From positions 1-37,645 of the forward strand of contig JASHSL010000259.1 in assembly GCA_030040855.1 (NCBI GenBank): DNA of 37,645 nucleotides, in the 5' to 3' direction. Each line of letters opens with the position of its first letter. The first letter of the stretch is position 1. Below, piece by piece: positions 20,832 through 30,495 of the stretch. This DNA comes from Terriglobales bacterium. Its GTDB lineage: Bacteria; Acidobacteriota; Terriglobia; Terriglobales; Acidobacteriaceae. The position numbers and the translations under genes were made by a program. Below the pieces are notes generated by a model that was not told the DNA's origin, ran no database searches, and was given only the letters and a program-made list of their open reading frames with translations.

Positions 20832-20936
20832 GTCAGGCATCGGTCCCGCGCAACGTTTTCCCGCCAACCCCGCCAGGTCCGGAAGGAAGCAACGGTAACG
20901 GGCTCTTGCGTGTGCAGCGGGTCTCCGGTGCCTGGC
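20832..20936 (+). ncRNA. ffs: Signal recognition particle RNA, small 4.5S type
   Basis: AGGTCCGGAAGGAAGCA at 20875-20891 is identical to the apical helix-8 motif of E. coli 4.5S RNA (GGAA tetraloop at 20881-20884). Hand folding gives one extended hairpin of about 105 nt. It is closed by a 12-bp stem (GTCAGGCATCGG 20832-20843 with CCGGTGCCTGGC 20925-20936), with internal CCCGC/GCGGG and CCCG/CGGG pairings. TGCTAGAAT ends 6 nt before the predicted 5' end. The ends are approximate, within about 10 nt. Confidence 0.8.
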
Positions 20937-22104: not shown

Positions 22105-22347
22105 GAGCCTCCCCTGTCGAGCGGTAGCGTCGACTCTTGACATAAATGCCGGCAGCGCAGTGCAAACGACCCTATCAAACTCCCCTGATCGCGACATGCG
22201 CGCTCACCCCGCCTCTTGATCTCCGCCAGTCTCGCTAGAGGGCATGGGTGTAGTGCGAGGAGGATGAAAAGTGCTGTTCTGCACTCCTCTGATCTCTCTC
22301 ACCTGAAATCTCGTCCCGGTCTCAACGGGAACCTGCAGACCACTTTC

Positions 22348-22357
22348 TGCGTATACT
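22348..22357 (+). promoter_or_regulatory. Putative -10 region TGCGTATACT upstream of the ABC ATPase gene
   Basis: It lies 25 nt upstream of ATG 22383, with GAGGAG between it and the start codon. Confidence 0.3.
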
Positions 22358-22382
22358 CAGATATTGTTGGATAGAGGAGTGC

Positions 22383-23279
22383 ATGGAACTTCGAATCAAT
22401 AATCTCTGCAAAAGATATGGCAACAGCGTGCAAGCGCTGCACAACGTTTCGCTAACGATTCCGCTAGGCATGTTTGGCTTGCTCGGGCCTAACGGTGCGG
22501 GCAAATCCACCCTGATGCGAACCCTGGCAACTCTGCAGGAGGCGGATAGCGGAACTGCAACACTTGATGGAATCGACGTCCTAAAACAGAAAGACGACGT
22601 ACGCCGCGTGCTCGGATACTTGCCGCAGGAATTCGGCTTGTATCCCAAGGTCTCTGCAGAGAATTTGCTGATGCACTTCGCCGCCCTGAAAGGAATCAGG
22701 AAAACGCGGCGCGAAGTGGTGAATGCACTGTTGCAACAGACCAATCTGTGGGAGCATCGCCGGAAGCCTCTCGGCAGTTTCTCTGGCGGCATGAAGCAAC
22801 GCTTCGGCATCGCGCAAGCCCTCTTGGGCGATCCTCGCCTGATCATCGTGGACGAACCCACGGCCGGCCTCGACCCCGAGGAGCGCGTTCGGTTCCATAA
22901 CCTGCTCAGCGCCATCGGACAAAACATCATCGTCATTCTTTCTACCCATATCGTTTCCGATGTCAGCGACCTATGCGGGCGAATGGCGATTATTCACCAG
23001 GGGCGGGTCCTGCTCGCGGGTGAACCCGCCACCCTTGTGGCGGAACTTCAAGGGCGGATATGGAAGAAAGCAATTGATGCCAGTGAGCTAGCCAGGAGTG
23101 GGGAACAATTTCAAGTGGTCATGGTGCGACTCTTCGCCGGAAAGACCCTGATCCATGTCCTCAGCGATGGGCAGCCGGGAGCAGGGTTCGAGCCTGTTCT
23201 TCCCGATCTGGAGGATCTGTACTTCGCAGCGATCCGCGGCTTCCTGAGTAAGCCGGCGCTGGCCGCGCCACTGAATTAG
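22383..23279 (+). CDS. ABC transporter ATP-binding protein (ABC-2 subfamily type) with a C-terminal extension of about 80 aa
   Basis: Walker A GPNGAGKST, signature FSGGMKQR, Walker B LIIVDEPTAGLD, H-loop STHIV. GAGGAG lies 3 nt upstream of the ATG. The stop is 4 nt before the next ORF. Confidence 0.9.
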   Translation: MELRINNLCKRYGNSVQALHNVSLTIPLGMFGLLGPNGAGKSTLMRTLATLQEADSGTATLDGIDVLKQKDDVRRVLGYLPQEFGLYPKVSAENLLMHFAALKGIRKTRREVVNALLQQTNLWEHRRKPLGSFSGGMKQRFGIAQALLGDPRLIIVDEPTAGLDPEERVRFHNLLSAIGQNIIVILSTHIVSDVSDLCGRMAIIHQGRVLLAGEPATLVAELQGRIWKKAIDASELARSGEQFQVVMVRLFAGKTLIHVLSDGQPGAGFEPVLPDLEDLYFAAIRGFLSKPALAAPLN

Positions 23280-23283
23280 TTCC

Positions 23284-26200
23284 ATGGTTCTCACCATTGC
23301 GGGCTTCGAATGTGGTCAGAGACTGCAGCGCATCTCCACCTACGTCTATCTTTTCGTCTTTTGCGGATTGGGATATCTATTCACTCTAATGTCGGGCGGT
23401 GCGGTGCCGGGCGCTAGCGTCGAGTTTGGGACCGGGGGCAAGGTTCTACTGAACTCTCCTTTTGCCCTGGATATCATCATCGCCTATGTGAGCTTCTTCG
23501 GCGTGGTGGTGACGGCCGCCATCGCTGGACAAGCAACCTTTCAGGATGTCGACTATCGTGCTACGGATTTCTTCTTTACTGCACCGATTACCAAGTTTGA
23601 CTATTTGGCAGGCCGCTTTCTTGCTGCGCTGGCCATTCAAGTCGTGATCTTTGCCAGTGTGGGTTTGGGAGCGTGGATCGGCACGCAAATGCCATGGCTC
23701 GATCCTACACGGCTTGGTCCGCAGCGACTCGCTGCATATTTGCACCCGTACTTCACACTTGTTCTGCCGAATCTGATTTTGCTGACGGCAATCTTCTTTG
23801 CCTTGGCGGCATTGGGGAAAAAGATGCTTCCCGTTTATGCTGGCAGCGTCCTTCTGCTGATCGGTTATTTCGTCGCTCAACAACTTTCGAGCAGTGTAAC
23901 CGCCAGCGTGCCTGCGGCGCTGGCGGATCCGTTTGGGGGAAACGCCATGGACCGCCTCACCCGGTATTGGACGCCCTTTGAGCGCAACACACAGCTGATT
24001 CCCTTAACAGGAATCATGCTGTGGAATCGGGTCTTATGGCTGGGCGTAGGCGGAGCACTACTGGCGCTTACGTATGCTAAATTCTCCTTTTCTTACGTTG
24101 CCTGGAGAGGCAAGGGGCGCAAGCCGATTGCTCCGGAGGAAGAGATCACTCCCGTTTCCACCCCAGCTTTGCCCCTGCCAGCTCGAGAGTTTTGCTCTGG
24201 TGCCTCGTTAAGCCAGTTTCTCTCGCTCACTCGTATCCAGTTCAGCGAGACGGTTAAGAATGTTTTCTTCCTTGTTCTTTTGCTGGCAGGCGGCTTATTT
24301 GCAATCTTCGCCGCGAACGGGGTCGGCAATCCGTTTTCCACGCGCACGTACCCGGTGACTTACAACATGCTGCAGTTGTCGAGCGCAGGGTTCTTTGTAT
24401 TTGCGCTTGCCATCATTACCTTTTATGCAGGCGAATTGGTTTGGCGGGAGCGGGATGCGGGTGTCAATCAGATTGTGGATGCTCTCCCGGTCGAGCGCTG
24501 GGTGCTGTTCTCTTCGAAGCTGGCAGCTTTGATGCTGGTGCAGGTGCTGATCCTGCTTGTCACCATGCTCTCAGGCCTCATTGTTCAGATCAGTCATGGT
24601 TACTACCGCTTTCAGCTCGGGCTTTACTTCACCGACCTTTGCGGCGTGCGTCTCATTCAGTTCTGGGTCTTGTGTGTGCTGGCCCTGCTCATTCACACAC
24701 TCGTGAACAACAAATATCTCGGGCATTTCGTGATGGTGCTGTATTTCATCGCTATCATCGCTCTACCCAACATGGGTCTGGAGAACTATCTTTATCGCTT
24801 TGGCCAGGCGCCCCCCTACACCTATTCTGATATGAATGGTTACGGACCATTCGCCGCGCCCTTGTTCTGGTATCACGTTTATTGGGCGATTGCCGCCGTA
24901 GCCCTGGCAATTCTTACAAATCTCTTGTGGGTGCGCTCTACCGAGAGCAGTTTCCCTACGCGGCTAAAACAGGCGGAAGGCCAATTGTCCGGCTCCGCAA
25001 TCGCGGCCCTCGCGTTCTGCTTTGTTCTCTTTCTTGGGGTAGGCAGCTACATTTTCTATAACACCAACATGCTCAATTCCTATCGCACCACCTGGCGCAT
25101 CGACGAGGACCGCGCCCAGTATGAAAGGAAATACCGGCAATATCTGACTGTGCCGCAGCCGCGGATCACTGACGTCAACACTCAGATCGATCTCTACCCT
25201 GAACGCGGGTTCGCTGACATTCGAGGTACGATGATGTTGGAGAACCAAACCTCGGCAGCGATCGATCGCATTCTTCTGACCATCTGGCCGGCGGACCTTG
25301 CGCCTTTGCCCCGCGGACATATTGCGATCGGCAAGCTGGCTTTGTCCAGCGAACAAACTGTCATCCTGCAGGATGACAGACTCGGTTTTTATATCTACCA
25401 AATGCCAACGGCCTTGCCGCCGCATGGCCATATCGCCTTGGATTTTGTGCTGAAGTACGAGAATAAGGGTTTCGTCAATTCTCGACCTAATACCGACATC
25501 GCAGCCAATGGTACTTTCCTCAACAGCGCCTACGCGCCCTTCGTCGGCTACGAAGCAGAGATCGAATTAACTGACGACAGCACGCGACACAAGCACGGAC
25601 TCACCCAACCGAAGCGCATGCCGCCGCTCGAGGATGCCGCCGCACGCAATAACAATGGCGTTTCCGCCGACGCCGACTGGATCAATTTCGAAGGAACGGT
25701 GAGCACCGCCCCGGACCAGAGCGCAATTCTGCCTGGCTACTTGCAGAAGGAATGGCTGGAAAACGGCCGGCGTTACTTCCAGTACAAAATGGATGCGCCC
25801 ATCTTGGCCATCGTTTCCGTGAATTCCGCGCGCTACGCTATACGCCGCGATCGCTGGCGGGATGTAAATCTGGAGATCTACTATCAGCCTGGTCATGAGT
25901 TCGATCTCGACCGGATGATGGACAGCATGAAGGCAACGCTCGAATATTGCAGCACGAATTTCAGCCCTTTCCAGTTTCACCAGGAACGGATCATCGAATT
26001 TCCGCGTTACGGCACATTCGCGGAATCGTTCCCGAACACAATCCCCTATTCCGAGGCGATCGGCTTCATTACCTATGTGGATTCTAAAGACCCGCAGGCT
26101 ATCGATATTCCGTTTTATGTCACCGCGCACGAAGTTGGGCATCAGTGGTGGGCGCATCAGGTCATCGGTGCGAATGTTGAGGGCGGAACCGCAATTGACG

Positions 26201-26898
26201 AAACGCTTGCTCAGTACACGGCGCTCATGGTGATGAAGCATCGTTACGGAGAGCGTTCGATGAGGAGATTTCTCCGTTATGAATTAGACAATTATCTTCG
26301 CGGACGAGCGCAGGAGCGCAACCAGGAGCAACCGCTTTACAAAGTTGATGAGAACCAGGGTTACATTCACTATGGCAAGGGGGCGGTGGTCATGTACGCA
26401 CTGCAGGATTACATCGGCGAGGACAACGTCAACAAAGCGTTAGCCGAGTTCATCCAGGCGTATGCCTTCAAGGGACCGCCCTATGCCGTGTCCCTGGACT
26501 TGATTCGTTATCTGAAGCAGCACACACCCCCCGAGTATCAGTACCTGTACGATGATCTCTTCGAGAACATCACGCTGTACGACAACCGGACCCGTTCTGC
26601 CAGTTACGTCGGGCTGGCTGACGGCAAATATCAGGTGAATCTTGATATCGAAGCGAGAAAGCTCCGCGCCGACGGCAAAGGCGAGGAGCACACGGTTCCC
26701 ATGAACGACTGGATTGACATTGGCGTGCTAGACGCGCAAGGGAACTACCTCTATCTGCAAAAGCATAAGATCGAGAAGGAACGGACGGAACTGACTCTCA
26801 TGGTTGACAAACTCCCATCCAAGGCCGGTATCGACCCTCTGAACAAGCTGATCGACCGCAGCCCGGAGGGCAACGTTATCAACGTAGAGAAGAAGTAA
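23284..26898 (+). CDS. Fusion protein: internally duplicated ABC-2-type permease (13 TM-like segments) plus an M1-family zinc metallopeptidase domain
   Basis: Residues 1 to about 590 contain 13 hydrophobic segments. The two halves align with each other (TAPITKFDYLAGRFLAALAIQVVIF versus ALPVERWVLFSSKLAALMLVQVLIL). Residues from about 600 to 1204 carry an intact gluzincin motif, HEVGHQWWAHQVIGANVEGGTAIDETLAQY. A divergent GxMEN-equivalent is present (YGTFAES). Confidence 0.85.
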   Translation: MVLTIAGFECGQRLQRISTYVYLFVFCGLGYLFTLMSGGAVPGASVEFGTGGKVLLNSPFALDIIIAYVSFFGVVVTAAIAGQATFQDVDYRATDFFFTAPITKFDYLAGRFLAALAIQVVIFASVGLGAWIGTQMPWLDPTRLGPQRLAAYLHPYFTLVLPNLILLTAIFFALAALGKKMLPVYAGSVLLLIGYFVAQQLSSSVTASVPAALADPFGGNAMDRLTRYWTPFERNTQLIPLTGIMLWNRVLWLGVGGALLALTYAKFSFSYVAWRGKGRKPIAPEEEITPVSTPALPLPAREFCSGASLSQFLSLTRIQFSETVKNVFFLVLLLAGGLFAIFAANGVGNPFSTRTYPVTYNMLQLSSAGFFVFALAIITFYAGELVWRERDAGVNQIVDALPVERWVLFSSKLAALMLVQVLILLVTMLSGLIVQISHGYYRFQLGLYFTDLCGVRLIQFWVLCVLALLIHTLVNNKYLGHFVMVLYFIAIIALPNMGLENYLYRFGQAPPYTYSDMNGYGPFAAPLFWYHVYWAIAAVALAILTNLLWVRSTESSFPTRLKQAEGQLSGSAIAALAFCFVLFLGVGSYIFYNTNMLNSYRTTWRIDEDRAQYERKYRQYLTVPQPRITDVNTQIDLYPERGFADIRGTMMLENQTSAAIDRILLTIWPADLAPLPRGHIAIGKLALSSEQTVILQDDRLGFYIYQMPTALPPHGHIALDFVLKYENKGFVNSRPNTDIAANGTFLNSAYAPFVGYEAEIELTDDSTRHKHGLTQPKRMPPLEDAAARNNNGVSADADWINFEGTVSTAPDQSAILPGYLQKEWLENGRRYFQYKMDAPILAIVSVNSARYAIRRDRWRDVNLEIYYQPGHEFDLDRMMDSMKATLEYCSTNFSPFQFHQERIIEFPRYGTFAESFPNTIPYSEAIGFITYVDSKDPQAIDIPFYVTAHEVGHQWWAHQVIGANVEGGTAIDETLAQYTALMVMKHRYGERSMRRFLRYELDNYLRGRAQERNQEQPLYKVDENQGYIHYGKGAVVMYALQDYIGEDNVNKALAEFIQAYAFKGPPYAVSLDLIRYLKQHTPPEYQYLYDDLFENITLYDNRTRSASYVGLADGKYQVNLDIEARKLRADGKGEEHTVPMNDWIDIGVLDAQGNYLYLQKHKIEKERTELTLMVDKLPSKAGIDPLNKLIDRSPEGNVINVEKK

Positions 26899-27018
26899 AA
26901 AAGCTCTCTTGGCAAGATTGGCAAAATCGCCCGAGCAAGCGGACTTCAAACGAGGCTAGAGGAGCTCATTCAACAAAAGGGAGTCCAGACAGCGGCCAAC
27001 GCCCGCGCCCTGCGAAAC

Positions 27019-27055: not shown

Positions 27056-29110
27056 TCAGTTTCCGGCTTCCGGTTTGTTCTTGGGCTGCTCGAAGGGCTT
27101 TTGCAGGTATCGCCGAGCTTCATCGAGCGCGCCCTGGGTGTTGTCGTTGGTCTGCAGGGCCTGACGGTACTCGTTGGTTGCGCGTTCGCGCTGTCCGGTG
27201 ATATCGAAGATCTTGCCCAGCTGGATGTGGCTCCACACTTCGGTCCAGCGGGGCTCGCCATCGCCGTTCAGCGCGTCACGGTAGGCATTGGCTGAAGCCT
27301 GATAATTCCTTTGCTGGAAAAATACCTCTGCGATGCGATAGTGGGCAAGTGAGCTGTTCTTGTTCACGTCGAGCGCTTTGTTGTACTCGGCGAGGGCACC
27401 CGCCAGATCTCCCTGCTGCACCAGAGCTTGTCCGCGCTGAATCGAGGCGCGCAGGCGGATATTGGGCGAATTCTTCAGCAGTGCGTTGTTCGGATCGAGC
27501 GATATGCGCCGCGGTTTGCCAAAGGTCTCGACGGTGAAAGCCGAATCCGTGCCCACCACCTCGATCCGCTTCTCTTCCGTTCTGCCGTCGGTATCAATTT
27601 TCAGCAACACCGGCATACGGAACAAGTCGAGATCCTGAGCAATCTGGCCGACGACGCGGAAGCCGGGGGTTTTTTCGGCGCCATTCTTGGGCGGTCCGAC
27701 ACCGCCCAAGCGGTACACCGTGTACTTCACCTTGAACTCGGGAGCTCCGGTCGAATCCAGCCACTGGGAAAAGAACCAGGTCAGCTTCTCGCCATAGTTC
27801 TGCTCGGCGATTTCGCGAAAATCGTCCGCCGAGGCGGGTTTGCCTGCATACTTTGCCGCGAAGGTGCGCATCGTCTGATCGAACTTCTGATCGCCTATCA
27901 CCCAGCGCAACATGTGCAGGATCATCCCTCCTTTATCCGTCACTAGGGTTTGGAACTCAGGCGAGAACCAGTCGAGCTTGCCGACGGTCGATAGCGGCAC
28001 CGTGTCATACGCCAGCGCTCCCACCGACATGTCCTTCACCGCTTCTTCCAGTCCGCTTTGTCCGGCAGCATTTTCGATGTATCTTGCTTCCGAATAGCGA
28101 GCGAAGCCGTCGCACAACCACCAGTCGTCCACCGAGGCGGGACTGACGGAAGCACCCCACCACTGGTGCGCGATGGTGTTTGCCAAAAGCCGGTAATTGA
28201 CCTTCTCGGTGATCGCCCGGCTGGCCATGCCTGCCAGTCCCGGAGCCCACACCGAGGGCACGGTGTCGTCGGGAATCTCGACCACCCTCAGCGTCGTAGA
28301 AGGCGCCGGGCCGTAGAGAGTGACGAAGTAGGTGAATTCCTTGATCGCGGTTTCCGCATATAACGCACCCAGGTTCTGGTGAATCGGCTTAAAGAAAACC
28401 TGGAGATCCACCCCCGCTTCATTGCTTTTGAATTGCTGGAAGGTCCCGGCAATGATGGTCCCCGGAAAGCTCGGCTTGCTCCACACAAACGTGAAGGTTT
28501 TGACCGAATCTGTCGGTGTCGTGGTCTTTAAAGCCGGAGTGCTGCTCTCGCTTTCCTCTCCGCTGCCAATCACGGTCATATGGGCCGGTACGGTAACGCT
28601 TATGGTGGCAGTAAAGCGGTTGGTGCCGTAGGCGACCACCGGGAACCAACGGCCGGGGTAGAGCAGGTAGCTGGTGTCGTCGCCCACATAGGCCAGCTTG
28701 AGCCCTTGTACTGGACTGTCATCGGCCGATTCAAGCGTCCCGTCATAGTCAAAGTTCAGGCTGCCAGACTCGTCTTTGTTGAGTGGCTTCAGCAACTGGA
28801 CGCGCACGGTCGAATCCTGGGTAATGCGCTCGGCGCTGAGGGGCTTGCCACTGTCATCGCTCACCTTGTTCAAGCGCAGATCATTGTTCAGTTGAAAAAT
28901 GGCGACATTGGTGCTCTCGAGCGCCGTGAACCTGACTTTGACATGAGCGGCGAGCTTGTGGATGTGGGGGGTAAGCTCAGCATTGATCTGATAATCGTCA
29001 ACCTGAAGGCGAACTTTCTCAGCAGCCCACGCCGGCAACGCCAACAGCAAAAGCAAAAATGCGAAATGACAGATAGGGACTCGGCGCGCGGGCCGAACTC
29101 GACCGAGCAT
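27056..29110 (-). CDS. Secreted M1-peptidase-like protein with a degenerate active site and C-terminal TPR repeats
   Basis: Signal peptide MLGRVRPARRVPICHFAFLLLLLALPAWA/AE begins at ATG 29110, with GGGGAG 11 nt upstream. The M1 fold signature LLANTIAHQWWGASVSPASVDDWWLCDGFARY has NTIAH in place of HEXXH and D in place of the distal E. The C-terminal 130 or so aa are TPR-like (GDLAGALAEYNKALDVNKNSSLAHYRIAEVFFQQRNYQASANAYRDAL). The track ORF to 29476 overlaps lpxB and is rejected. Confidence 0.8.
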   Translation of the reverse strand: MLGRVRPARRVPICHFAFLLLLLALPAWAAEKVRLQVDDYQINAELTPHIHKLAAHVKVRFTALESTNVAIFQLNNDLRLNKVSDDSGKPLSAERITQDSTVRVQLLKPLNKDESGSLNFDYDGTLESADDSPVQGLKLAYVGDDTSYLLYPGRWFPVVAYGTNRFTATISVTVPAHMTVIGSGEESESSTPALKTTTPTDSVKTFTFVWSKPSFPGTIIAGTFQQFKSNEAGVDLQVFFKPIHQNLGALYAETAIKEFTYFVTLYGPAPSTTLRVVEIPDDTVPSVWAPGLAGMASRAITEKVNYRLLANTIAHQWWGASVSPASVDDWWLCDGFARYSEARYIENAAGQSGLEEAVKDMSVGALAYDTVPLSTVGKLDWFSPEFQTLVTDKGGMILHMLRWVIGDQKFDQTMRTFAAKYAGKPASADDFREIAEQNYGEKLTWFFSQWLDSTGAPEFKVKYTVYRLGGVGPPKNGAEKTPGFRVVGQIAQDLDLFRMPVLLKIDTDGRTEEKRIEVVGTDSAFTVETFGKPRRISLDPNNALLKNSPNIRLRASIQRGQALVQQGDLAGALAEYNKALDVNKNSSLAHYRIAEVFFQQRNYQASANAYRDALNGDGEPRWTEVWSHIQLGKIFDITGQRERATNEYRQALQTNDNTQGALDEARRYLQKPFEQPKNKPEAGN

Positions 29111-29211
29111 CAAAACCGTATCTCCCCGAGGTTCTCTCACTATGATGAAGATTTTGGCCCAAAAGATGCTGGCCGCACAAGCCTGAATACTGAAAACGAA
29201 GAGCTCCCTGT

Positions 29212-30495
29212 CTAACGTCTCCGTTCCAGCCAAAGCCGGAGAATGGTCTCGGCGGCCCGCTCTGCAGGGGAGGCACCGCCGGGATTGGGCCCGCGCAGCG
29301 AGTCCCTGACCTGCGTCAGACCCTCGATCATCCCTGCCCGCACCGGGCCGTCGGCCAGGATGGTTTTCAGCTTGCCAACGACATTTGGGGCGGTGAAGTC
29401 CCGCTGCACCAGTTCGGGGACCACTTCTCTGCCTGCGATCAAGTTCACCATGGCCAGATAGGGGACTTTCACCCACGGGCGCCCCAAAGCATAGGTGAGC
29501 GAGCTGACCCGGTAAACCATGACAAATGGGGTTCCCACGATTGCGGCTTCGACGGTGGCAGTGCCGCTGGCAATGATGCCGCCGCGGGAGTAGGTTAAGG
29601 CAGGTAGACTGTCACTGACAAAGTGGATGGGCGGGCGGCTGCCAATCAGGTTTTCGAGCCACGACCGGCTGAGGGTCGGGGCAACCGGCAGCAGGAACTC
29701 GTATGCCGTACCCAGCTGAGAGGCCGCCTCGAGGATCGTAGGCAAGTTCATGCGCACTTCTTTCTCTCGACTGCCAGGCATGAGGGTGATCCAGGGCTTG
29801 TCGGGGTCGAGTCCGTGCTGGGCGGCATAACTGGCTCGCGTGCTTCCCGGCGGCGGCAGATTGGCCAGCGGATGGCCGATGAAGGTGGCATCCACCCCGC
29901 GATCGCGGTAGAAGCGTTCTTCGAACGGGAAAATCACCAGTGCCTTGGCAATATAGCGGCGCAGCAGCCGGACGCGCCCTTGCCTCCAGGCCCAGAATTG
30001 CGGACACACGTAGTAGACGACCGGAACGCCGCGCTTATGCATCTGGCGCGCCACCCTCCAATTGAAGGCTGGCGAATCGATGACCACGGCGACATCGGGC
30101 CGGCGACGGTCGGCTTCGGCAATGAGGCTGGCAAAGAGCCCGTAGATTTTCGGCAGATGGCTAAGGATTTCTGTGATGCCGACCACGGCAAGCTCGCGTG
30201 CGTCGACAACGGCGTCAAAACCGGCGGCTCGCATGCGGTCTCCGCCGACCCCAAAGAATTCGAGCCGCTCCCCGGGCTGGCTGTTTTCTCGGGAGCTCGA
30301 GGTCGGCACTAGGAAGCCACCGTCGGCAGCGGAGACGGGGCCGTTTCCACGGCAAAGCTTGCCGGCCATGTGGCGCAGCGCCGCGATCAGTTGCCCCCCG
30401 TACATTTCGCCGGAGGCTTCGCCGGCCGAGATCAGAATTCTCACACTAGTATTGTGACATTCCCCCTGGCGCCGGGGGCATGGCTCCATCTGCAA
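29212..30495 (-). CDS. lpxB: Lipid-A-disaccharide synthase
   Basis: ILISAGEASGEMYG, FFGVGGDRM, YYVCPQFWAWRQGR and FIGHPL motifs. The start is TTG 30495 (GGAGG 6 nt upstream), ATG 30489 or GTG 30444. I keep the SD-supported one. Confidence 0.88.
   Translation of the reverse strand: MQMEPCPRRQGECHNTSVRILISAGEASGEMYGGQLIAALRHMAGKLCRGNGPVSAADGGFLVPTSSSRENSQPGERLEFFGVGGDRMRAAGFDAVVDARELAVVGITEILSHLPKIYGLFASLIAEADRRRPDVAVVIDSPAFNWRVARQMHKRGVPVVYYVCPQFWAWRQGRVRLLRRYIAKALVIFPFEERFYRDRGVDATFIGHPLANLPPPGSTRASYAAQHGLDPDKPWITLMPGSREKEVRMNLPTILEAASQLGTAYEFLLPVAPTLSRSWLENLIGSRPPIHFVSDSLPALTYSRGGIIASGTATVEAAIVGTPFVMVYRVSSLTYALGRPWVKVPYLAMVNLIAGREVVPELVQRDFTAPNVVGKLKTILADGPVRAGMIEGLTQVRDSLRGPNPGGASPAERAAETILRLWLERRR

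Follow-up and report, generated by a model that had tools for sequence, protein, structure and literature searches.

We have analysed a window of 37,645 nt (the whole stretch of DNA under study) from the Terriglobales bacterium assembly GCA_030040855.1 (contig JASHSL010000259.1, forward strand), in which a gene for an ATP-binding cassette (ABC) ATPase is directly followed by a gene for a 1204-aa fusion of a tandem ABC-2 permease, a thirteenth transmembrane helix (TM13) and an M1-type zinc peptidase. It is very likely that two ATPases lie under one pseudo-dimeric permease chain, and that TM13 crosses the membrane and places an intact M1-clan peptidase near the periplasmic face. By family description this pair is a member of the Transporter Classification Database (TCDB) family 3.A.1.145, so that its architecture had already been catalogued in 2013. 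We further propose, tentatively and by analogy, that export is coupled to cleavage of the exported substrate by the attached peptidase, the odds being somewhat against this mechanism. The statement as a whole, of a type V exporter of this family with both the above architecture and the above mechanism, has not quite an even chance of being correct.

Architecture of the gene pair

The ATPase gene stops with TAG and the fusion gene starts with ATG on the same strand. Because only the four nucleotides TTCC separate the two codons, the spacing suggests that the genes are translated as a coupled pair. The positions and lengths of the two open reading frames (ORFs), as well as the 4-nt gap, came out in the ORF check exactly as the original prediction, made by reading this DNA without database searches, had them. 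The parts of the pair are listed below, with residue numbers referring to the fusion protein.

22383..23279, + strand: ABC ATPase gene (nucleotide-binding domain, NBD; DrrA/GldA-like ABC-2 type), 298 aa; from the Pfam ABC_tran match and catalytic motifs
23284..26898, + strand: fusion ORF (tandem ABC-2 permease, TM13, M1-type zinc peptidase), 1204 aa; from Pfam, hydropathy, AlphaFold2 (AF2) and homologues
23284..24093, + strand: transmembrane domain 1 (TMD1), amphipathic connecting helix and TM1-TM6, aa 1-270; from hydropathy, AF2 helices and hhalign against TMD2
24094..24213, + strand: Lys/Arg-rich, poorly conserved, predicted cytoplasmic linker between the halves, aa 271-310; AF2 predicted local distance difference test (pLDDT) <50
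24214..24939, + strand: TMD2, second connecting helix and TM7-TM12, aa 311-552; from Pfam ABC2_membrane_4 and hhalign against TMD1
25000..25056, + strand: TM13, extra helix predicted to take the chain to the periplasmic side, aa 573-591; hydropathy 2.37, AF2 helix 570-597
25093..25878, + strand: juxtamembrane helix (RAQYEKKY) and M1 N-terminal beta-sandwich, aa ~604-865; from AF2 secondary structure
25879..26565, + strand: M1 thermolysin-like catalytic domain, aa ~866-1094; from Pfam, PDB profile matches and Foldseek
26017..26031, + strand: GAMEN-equivalent position FAESF, aa 912-916; from hidden Markov model alignment to ERAP2 and column counts
26128..26202, + strand: zinc motif HEVGH-X19-E (H949, E950, H953, E973); from the motif and family counts
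26371..26373, + strand: putative transition-state-stabilising Tyr1030 in a Y-x-K-G motif; aligns with the Y of ERAP2 'SYNKGA'
26566..26895, + strand: C-terminal beta-sandwich, equivalent of M1 domain III, aa ~1095-1204; AF2 gives strands only, 1096-1200

A 19-residue hydropathy scan found 13 hydrophobic segments between fusion residues 17 and 591, arranged as 6+6+1 (TM1-TM6 at about 17-41, 64-84, 112-130, 155-177, 181-199 and 244-262; TM7-TM12 at 326-344, 362-386, 416-434, 452-470, 479-497 and 527-550). Helices at matching positions were present in two AF2 runs, one on the full-length fusion and one on residues 1-600, in agreement with the 13 segments originally counted by eye. The claim that the two 6-TM halves align with each other held for the family profiles but not for the single sequence. 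Pairwise BLASTP of the halves was not significant (E 0.065), and neither was hhalign with a shallow Terriglobales alignment (probability 6.8%). With broad-family profiles, built from 146 representatives each at most about 64% identical to the query, residues 1-270 and 311-552 aligned end to end over 239 columns (hhalign probability 98.2%, E 2.5e-13). Since these profiles align both halves, we judge that the internal duplication of the permease is real and that the halves are homologous. The region between them (residues 271-325) has a conservation of only 0.19 in the family alignment.

A Pfam search had been expected to return two ABC-2 matches and Peptidase_M1. Peptidase_M1 was found (residues 880-1064, 38.1 bits against a cut-off of 27.7), and so was ABC2_membrane_4 in TMD2 (residues 329-487, E 3e-10, 40.8 bits against a cut-off of 27), but TMD1 of the window protein stayed under threshold, with ABC2_membrane_2 at E 0.0058 and 16.4 bits. 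TMD1 of the homologue P0053 matched ABC2_membrane_5 over threshold (30.6 bits against a cut-off of 25).

The AF2 model of residues 1-600 (pLDDT 74.3, predicted TM-score (pTM) 0.71) has the features of a type V exporter, namely 6+6 transmembrane helices, amphipathic connecting helices at 2-14 and 305-325 that precede TM1 and TM7, with a short helix at 93-97 that follows TM2. D88 after TM2 and W387/R390 after TM8 are among the most conserved permease positions. When this model was compared with the PDB using Foldseek, the top match was Rv1217c (8K1M-8K1P), with a TM-score normalised to the target (TMt) of 0.48-0.60 over ~600 columns. PmtCD, NosY of NosDFY(L), ABCG2, Wzm and KpsM came next, all of them type V (ABC-2) exporters, and every ABC entry within the first thirteen matches had a Foldseek probability of 1.00. 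Type VII structures were absent from the 50 best structural matches listed for the model. The proposal of a single-chain pseudo-dimeric permease over an ATPase homodimer is thus backed both by the internal duplication and by the solved precedent of Rv1217c-1218c (PMC11406275).

Thirty permease positions reach a conservation of at least 90%, and from our reading of conservation against the hydropathy topology 16 of these sit on the periplasmic side, such as D215, P216, W229, N235, N248, R249, W252, Q435, Y448 and S515. Average conservation is 0.445 in the transmembrane halves and 0.448 in the M1 N-domain. The periplasmic face of the permease thus appears unusually conserved and, together with the conserved helix after TM13, would fit a fixed functional junction with the peptidase.

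TM13 keeps its hydrophobic character in 97% of the family representatives. A type V TMD both starts and finishes in the cytoplasm (PMC11406275), and therefore a 13th helix must take the chain outside. In a positive-inside test on the 146-sequence alignment, the mean number of lysines plus arginines was 31.0 in the predicted cytoplasmic loops against 8.5 in the predicted periplasmic ones, with family means of 10.9 for the inter-half loop (residues 263-325) and 6.0 for the TM12-TM13 loop. This bias and the type V fold both favour a periplasmic peptidase, as had been proposed from the odd helix count.

Downstream of TM13, the full-length AF2 model (pLDDT 72.5, pTM 0.63) shows a conserved helix, in which E614 is 100% conserved, a beta-sandwich (~627-867), a helical catalytic domain (~870-1094) and a further beta-sandwich (~1096-1200). 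Foldseek matched this model to IRAP, ERAP1/2, PepN, PfA-M1 and other M1 enzymes (E 1e-15 to 2e-17, ~600-650 columns), and profile searches of the PDB sequences gave ERAP2 (E 3e-8), PepN and F3. The lanthipeptide M1 peptidase EryP was considered as a specific relative and set aside, as it ranked only 42nd among generic M1 matches.

The residues of the zinc motif are in place, with HEVGH at residue 949 and AIDETLAQY downstream, as the original prediction stated, but the spacing is X19 and not the canonical X18 given there. The window protein shares X19 with 119 of the 120 representatives that matched the motif pattern. Conservation among the 146 representatives is nearly complete at H949 (145), E950 (146), H953 (145), E973 (146), Y1030 (145) and K1032 (146), and the peptidase is very probably active. 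In M1 aminopeptidases the glutamate of the GAMEN box normally binds the free N-terminus of the substrate, and the helical domain IV caps or gates the active site. The box had rightly been called divergent: it reads FAESF here and FAQSF in the family consensus, with Ser or Ala occupying the Glu position. Domain IV is absent, since the ORF stops at residue 1204 after the beta-sandwich of the AF2 model. Because the GAMEN glutamate is replaced and domain IV is missing, it is improbable that the peptidase works as a classical aminopeptidase; it may cleave at internal bonds or accept substrates whose N-terminus is blocked.

The ATPase matches Pfam ABC_tran (E 1.2e-29). Its best NCBIfam matches are DrrA and GldA, both under the family cut-offs, and it also resembles, below the cut-off, the lantibiotic-protection ABC ATPases (TIGR03740, E 1.9e-41). 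The Walker A (GPNGAGKST at residue 35), signature (FSGGMKQR at 133) and H-loop (TH at 188, H189) motifs reported earlier were all located, along with Q82 of the Q-loop and the Walker B LIIVDEP at 153 with its catalytic E158. Among 75 orthologue matches in related loci, the Walker A Lys, Q-loop Gln, SGG, Walker B Asp-Glu and H-loop His are kept in 74-75. The ATPase is predicted to be competent for hydrolysis, and it is always paired with the fusion gene. One of these orthologues has a stop codon at the E158 position in the tblastn alignment, which may mark a pseudogene or a sequencing error. PADLOC gave no match to the fusion, nothing beyond generic P-loop noise with the ATPase, and therefore no link of the cassette to known phage-defence systems.

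Distribution and gene context

A search of 5.8 billion proteins gave more than 3500 matches to the fusion. The 120 best, mostly from Terriglobales, are 64-100% identical to the window protein and align over the entire query; their lengths are 1079-1270 aa, with nearly all close to 1200 aa. When 1.84 billion cluster representatives were searched exhaustively with HMMER, 2236 clusters (50% identity) came out at E<=1e-30; among the best 150 of these, 146 are 1150-1270 aa long and the four short ones are contig-end fragments. In a scan with one genome per species, at least 595 species from about ten phyla carry the full-length fusion. Our locus analyses cover the best 80 related loci of this species scan, with full-length identities of 37-79% to the window protein. 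They come from Acidobacteriota, Burkholderiales (Massilia, Duganella, Janthinobacterium, Undibacterium, Rugamonas), Bacteroidota (Hymenobacter, Adhaeribacter, Pontibacter), Gemmatimonadota, Myxococcota, Verrucomicrobiota, Cloacimonadota, Oligoflexia, Salinivenus and Alphaproteobacteria. The hosts are Gram-negative soil and freshwater bacteria.

The possibility that an assembly or frameshift error has joined separate permease and peptidase genes is negligible. The best homologues, nearly all of about 1200 aa and covering the query, come from independent assemblies that include isolate genomes (Massilia, Duganella, Janthinobacterium, Hymenobacter, Adhaeribacter), and such full-length copies refute it; the few short representatives are contig-end fragments. 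Half-size variants (7-TM plus M1) were also considered and rejected, the short representatives lacking start or end residues as fragments do. Three copies lie in bins of unexpected taxonomy: one in a bin labelled Verrucomicrobiia (L014) is 65% identical to the window protein, no further from it than many Terriglobales copies are, and two in bins labelled Clostridia (L020, L031) are 44% identical. This suggests mis-binning or recent horizontal transfer.

Homologues are named 'M1 family aminopeptidase', 'ABC transporter permease' or 'multi-copper enzyme maturation permease' in the databases, the last being a Joint Genome Institute (JGI) label that derives from NosY. The generic labelling suspected by the original prediction is thereby confirmed, and the current labels cover half of the protein or mislead. 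No NCBIfam model matches the fusion.

An ATPase orthologue lies directly upstream of the fusion gene, on the same strand, in 72 of the 72 loci whose upstream DNA is long enough to tell, and these span about ten phyla; this answers the proposed survey of the adjacency in its favour. These orthologues are 56-86% identical to the window ATPase, and by this measure the ATPase is the better conserved of the two proteins. In two more loci, both truncated, the 3' part of its gene is visible. In one unclassified metagenome-assembled genome (L074, 761-5268) an ATPase orthologue of 62% identity lies directly downstream of the fusion gene, the only such locus, with a stored contig too short upstream to rule out a second copy there. 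Over the whole analysis we found neither an even helix count with a cytoplasmic M1 domain, nor relatives with separate genes, nor a failure of the two genes to co-occur.

None of the neighbours in the window (TgpA, FabH, M1-TPR protein, LpxB and others) recurs when sought in the 80 related loci. When every flanking ORF of these loci was clustered, only an Oxalobacteraceae-specific synteny and no conserved third gene came out. With no further gene conserved beside it, the pair forms a self-contained cassette of two genes. The Oxalobacteraceae synteny (Massilia, Duganella, Janthinobacterium and relatives) consists of a second ABC-2 system ~0.5-5 kb upstream of the cassette, with an ATPase 30-37% identical to the window ATPase and a permease of ~398 aa (loci L024, L027, L029, L033, L034, L036, L037, L039, L047, L049, L054, L061, L075 and L077).

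The 278-nt gap after FabH (22105..22382, + strand) is the presumed promoter region of the two-gene operon. A sigma-70-like consensus and an Rfam element were sought upstream of the ATPase gene and neither was found; promoter and terminator scans with an Rfam search across the operon region also gave nothing usable. The guanine-plus-cytosine (GC) content is 0.54-0.55 over 23001-27000 of the window against ~0.59-0.62 in the remainder, and the adenine-thymine (AT) skew is strongly negative over the permease part of the cassette. The low GC may reflect membrane-protein composition or horizontal acquisition, the latter being a fit to the complete absence of conserved synteny.

The other genes of the window are of housekeeping type (FabH, a TgpA-like transglutaminase, a MiaB-like radical SAM protein, LpxB, a CNNM/CorC transporter and the signal recognition particle (SRP) RNA). 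The small SRP RNA lies at 20837-20934 (+ strand; Rfam RF00169, 69 bits, E 1.9e-13), between the TgpA-like gene and FabH. At 27056-29476 on the - strand, convergent with the fusion ORF, is a gene for an M1-fold protein with C-terminal tetratricopeptide (TPR) repeats and an apparent signal peptide. This protein has no catalytic residue (NTIAH at the HEXXH position, Asp for the zinc Glu and Asp for the catalytic Tyr), is ~20% identical to the catalytic domain of the fusion and does not accompany the cassette in other genomes; it appears to be a secreted pseudo-peptidase.

Proposed export-coupled proteolysis and other readings

Very likely, two ATPase copies sit beneath the single permease chain, whose two 6-TM halves form the pseudo-dimeric membrane domain, and the short conserved juxtamembrane helix holds the zinc peptidase close to the periplasmic face. 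In the mechanism that we propose, ATP binding and hydrolysis would collapse an outer-leaflet cavity, as in Rv1217c-1218c, and so expel a peptide-like substrate, hydrophobic or amphipathic, that comes from the membrane. This substrate would pass straight to the attached peptidase and be cleaved there, in an export-coupled, 'extract-and-cleave' form of proteolysis, with the membrane domain possibly replacing the missing domain IV. The peptide-like nature of the substrate is proposed by analogy with Rv1217c-1218c and with the peptide exporter PmtCD. Candidate roles would be the clearing of membrane-embedded peptide fragments and the detoxification of membrane-active peptides.

Several points weigh against this proposal. 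The cargo of type V transporters is often a lipid or a lipid-linked polymer and not a peptide. Our literature searches gave no substrate, transport or proteolytic activity for any family member, and no biosynthetic, immunity or regulatory gene that would hint at a peptide substrate is conserved near the cassette. The Foldseek E-values of the membrane domain are weak, at 3e-3 and worse, and the AF2 confidence is moderate (pLDDT 72-74, pTM 0.63-0.71). In both the GAMEN-equivalent loop and the loop preceding Tyr1030 the pLDDT is <50, and the details of the pocket are therefore unreadable from the model. An extended version of the proposal is doubtful: here the family would be an unrecognised class of inner-membrane machine of diderm bacteria, in which the type V exporter extracts membrane-embedded or lipid-anchored peptides into a rigidly docked, N-terminus-independent M1-type endopeptidase, the transporter replaces domain IV, and ATP hydrolysis is coupled to periplasmic proteolysis.

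The cassette might also transmit motion and transport nothing. The ATPase cycle would then move the permease helices so as to open, close or reposition the peptidase, which would cleave proteins or peptides of the periplasm or envelope only in the energised state, on the model of FtsEX-EnvC, FtsEX-PcsB or the NosDFY docking platform. The joint between membrane and peptidase is a short conserved helix and not a floppy linker, the periplasmic permease loops are unusually conserved, the missing domain IV would leave the membrane domain free to act as a gate, and NosY, which bears a periplasmic partner, is a structural neighbour. All of these speak for such a device, but the known mechanotransmitters FtsEX, MacB and LolCDE are type VII and not type V systems, the closest structural matches (Rv1217c and PmtCD) are true exporters, and the transmembrane halves are as conserved as the M1 N-domain. 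We consider mechanotransmission unlikely. A more specific form of export-coupled cleavage, which is improbable as it stands, is a resistance pump against membrane-active antimicrobial peptides, in which the ABC-2 part would extract the peptide from the outer leaflet, like transporters of the LanFEG, BcrAB and PmtCD types, and the peptidase would destroy it. Such a pump would be a one-polypeptide version of the NSR protease and NsrFP transporter. It gains from the likeness of the ATPase to TIGR03740, from the structural neighbour PmtCD and from the permease matches to ABC2_membrane_4 (window protein) and ABC2_membrane_5 (P0053), families which we take to include lantibiotic-immunity permeases. 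Soil and freshwater hosts would fit as well, as would the absence of conserved synteny and a GC content of 0.54 against ~0.60 around the cassette, as is often seen in accessory resistance modules. However, a conserved sensor or regulator, such as a BceRS-like one, is absent from the surroundings, a housekeeping role would account equally well for the strong conservation and for the wide, mostly single-copy distribution, and the support is circumstantial.

It is more improbable still that the M1 domain generates or processes an exported product outside the cell, or serves only as a non-catalytic receptor or plug. Getsin et al. did propose that an amino acid or a derivative is exported (PMC3924187), and type V exporters commonly handle lipids and lipid-linked substrates (PMC11406275). 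The near-invariant zinc ligands, catalytic Glu and Tyr speak against a non-catalytic role, and the sequence gives no hint of an amino-acid substrate.

In the prevailing view, ATP-dependent proteolysis takes place only in the cytoplasm, as ATP is absent from the periplasm. If true, a transporter that passes its cargo on to a periplasmic protease covalently joined to it would offer a means of powering proteolysis beyond the cytoplasm. The interest of the cassette is thus that of an open problem on a catalogued family, which could couple cytoplasmic ATP to periplasmic proteolysis, and not that of a new discovery in this window. The family is large and strongly conserved, and is present in culturable, probably genetically tractable genera (Massilia, Janthinobacterium, Hymenobacter, Myxococcus). 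Because this compact two-gene system needs no other conserved partner, it is a good target for cryo-electron microscopy and reconstitution, as well as a good case for asking what bacterial type V exporters do beyond glycolipid and drug export.

Comparison with known systems

The view that the fusion was undescribed proved wrong. Getsin et al. in 2013 described a 1200-aa ABC-2 and Peptidase M1 fusion with 13 transmembrane segments, created TCDB family 3.A.1.145 with Myxococcus xanthus Q1D520 as the founding member, and speculated that it exports an amino acid or derivative (PMC3924187). In length (~1200 aa), number of segments, N-terminal ABC-2 part and C-terminal Peptidase M1 part we found no difference between this family and the window protein. 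Full-length homologues 42-46% identical to the latter are present in genomes of Myxococcales, Myxococcota, Haliangiales and Kofleriaceae. Our full-text literature searches returned only the 2013 TCDB paper and no experimental work on any family member, in keeping with the earlier belief that experimental characterisation was absent. In the PDB (entries to April 2026), no returned match spanned the transporter and peptidase halves, and the full-length Foldseek search gave M1 peptidases only.

The closest structural relative of the permease is Rv1217c-Rv1218c (8K1M-8K1P), in which two non-identical TMDs in one polypeptide sit on a homodimer of the separately encoded NBD Rv1218c (PMC11406275). 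Rv1217c is of type V, with connecting helices that lead into TM1 and TM7 and with a coupling helix between TM2 and TM3; the complex has an outer-leaflet substrate cavity closed by a periplasmic gate (PMC11406275). The window pair shares with it the single-chain tandem 6-TM TMDs, the type V fold and an NBD from one adjacent gene; unlike the window pair, it has neither a 13th transmembrane helix nor a periplasmic enzyme, it transports a drug (rifampicin), and the aligned identity is ~14%.

PmtCD, the phenol-soluble-modulin exporter of S. aureus (6XJH, 9Q2N), has the same ABC-2/type V permease fold and exports amphipathic membrane-active peptides. In contrast to the window permease, it is a homodimer of 6-TM subunits without a fused peptidase, and it belongs to a Gram-positive host. 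NosDFY(L) (7O0Y, 7ZNQ) resembles the window pair in its ABC-2 permease NosY (TMt 0.55-0.60) and in bearing a periplasmic protein on the transporter. That protein, NosD, is however a separate beta-helix protein and not a peptidase, NosY is a homodimer, and the system serves copper-centre maturation.

The likeness to FtsEX, NosDFY and LolCDE drawn in the original prediction therefore stands in part: NosDFY shares the fold, but FtsEX and LolCDE do not, being of type VII. FtsEX, MacB and LolCDE have four transmembrane helices per subunit and a periplasmic domain between TM1 and TM2, whereas the window fusion has 6+6+1 helices and a C-terminal periplasmic domain. What the window pair would share with these three systems is that cytoplasmic ATP hydrolysis is put to periplasmic work; FtsEX controls periplasmic hydrolases.

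With the canonical M1 enzymes (PepN, ERAP1/2, IRAP, PfA-M1, F3), the peptidase part shares the N-terminal beta-sandwich, the thermolysin-like domain, the following beta-sandwich, HEXXH...E and the catalytic Tyr. It differs from them in having FAQSF for GAMEN, X19 spacing and no domain IV, and in its anchoring via a 13-TM transporter, the structure-based identity being 10-15%.

A known design in which an ABC exporter is covalently fused to a cargo-processing peptidase is that of the peptidase-containing ABC transporters (PCATs, for example PCAT1 with a C39 peptidase); Pfam found no C39 domain in the fusion. In a PCAT, a type IV exporter with fused NBDs bears a cytoplasmic cysteine protease at its N-terminus, which works ahead of transport, whereas in the window fusion a zinc enzyme, predicted to be periplasmic, lies at the C-terminus of a type V exporter whose NBD is separate, and this enzyme would work once transport has taken place.

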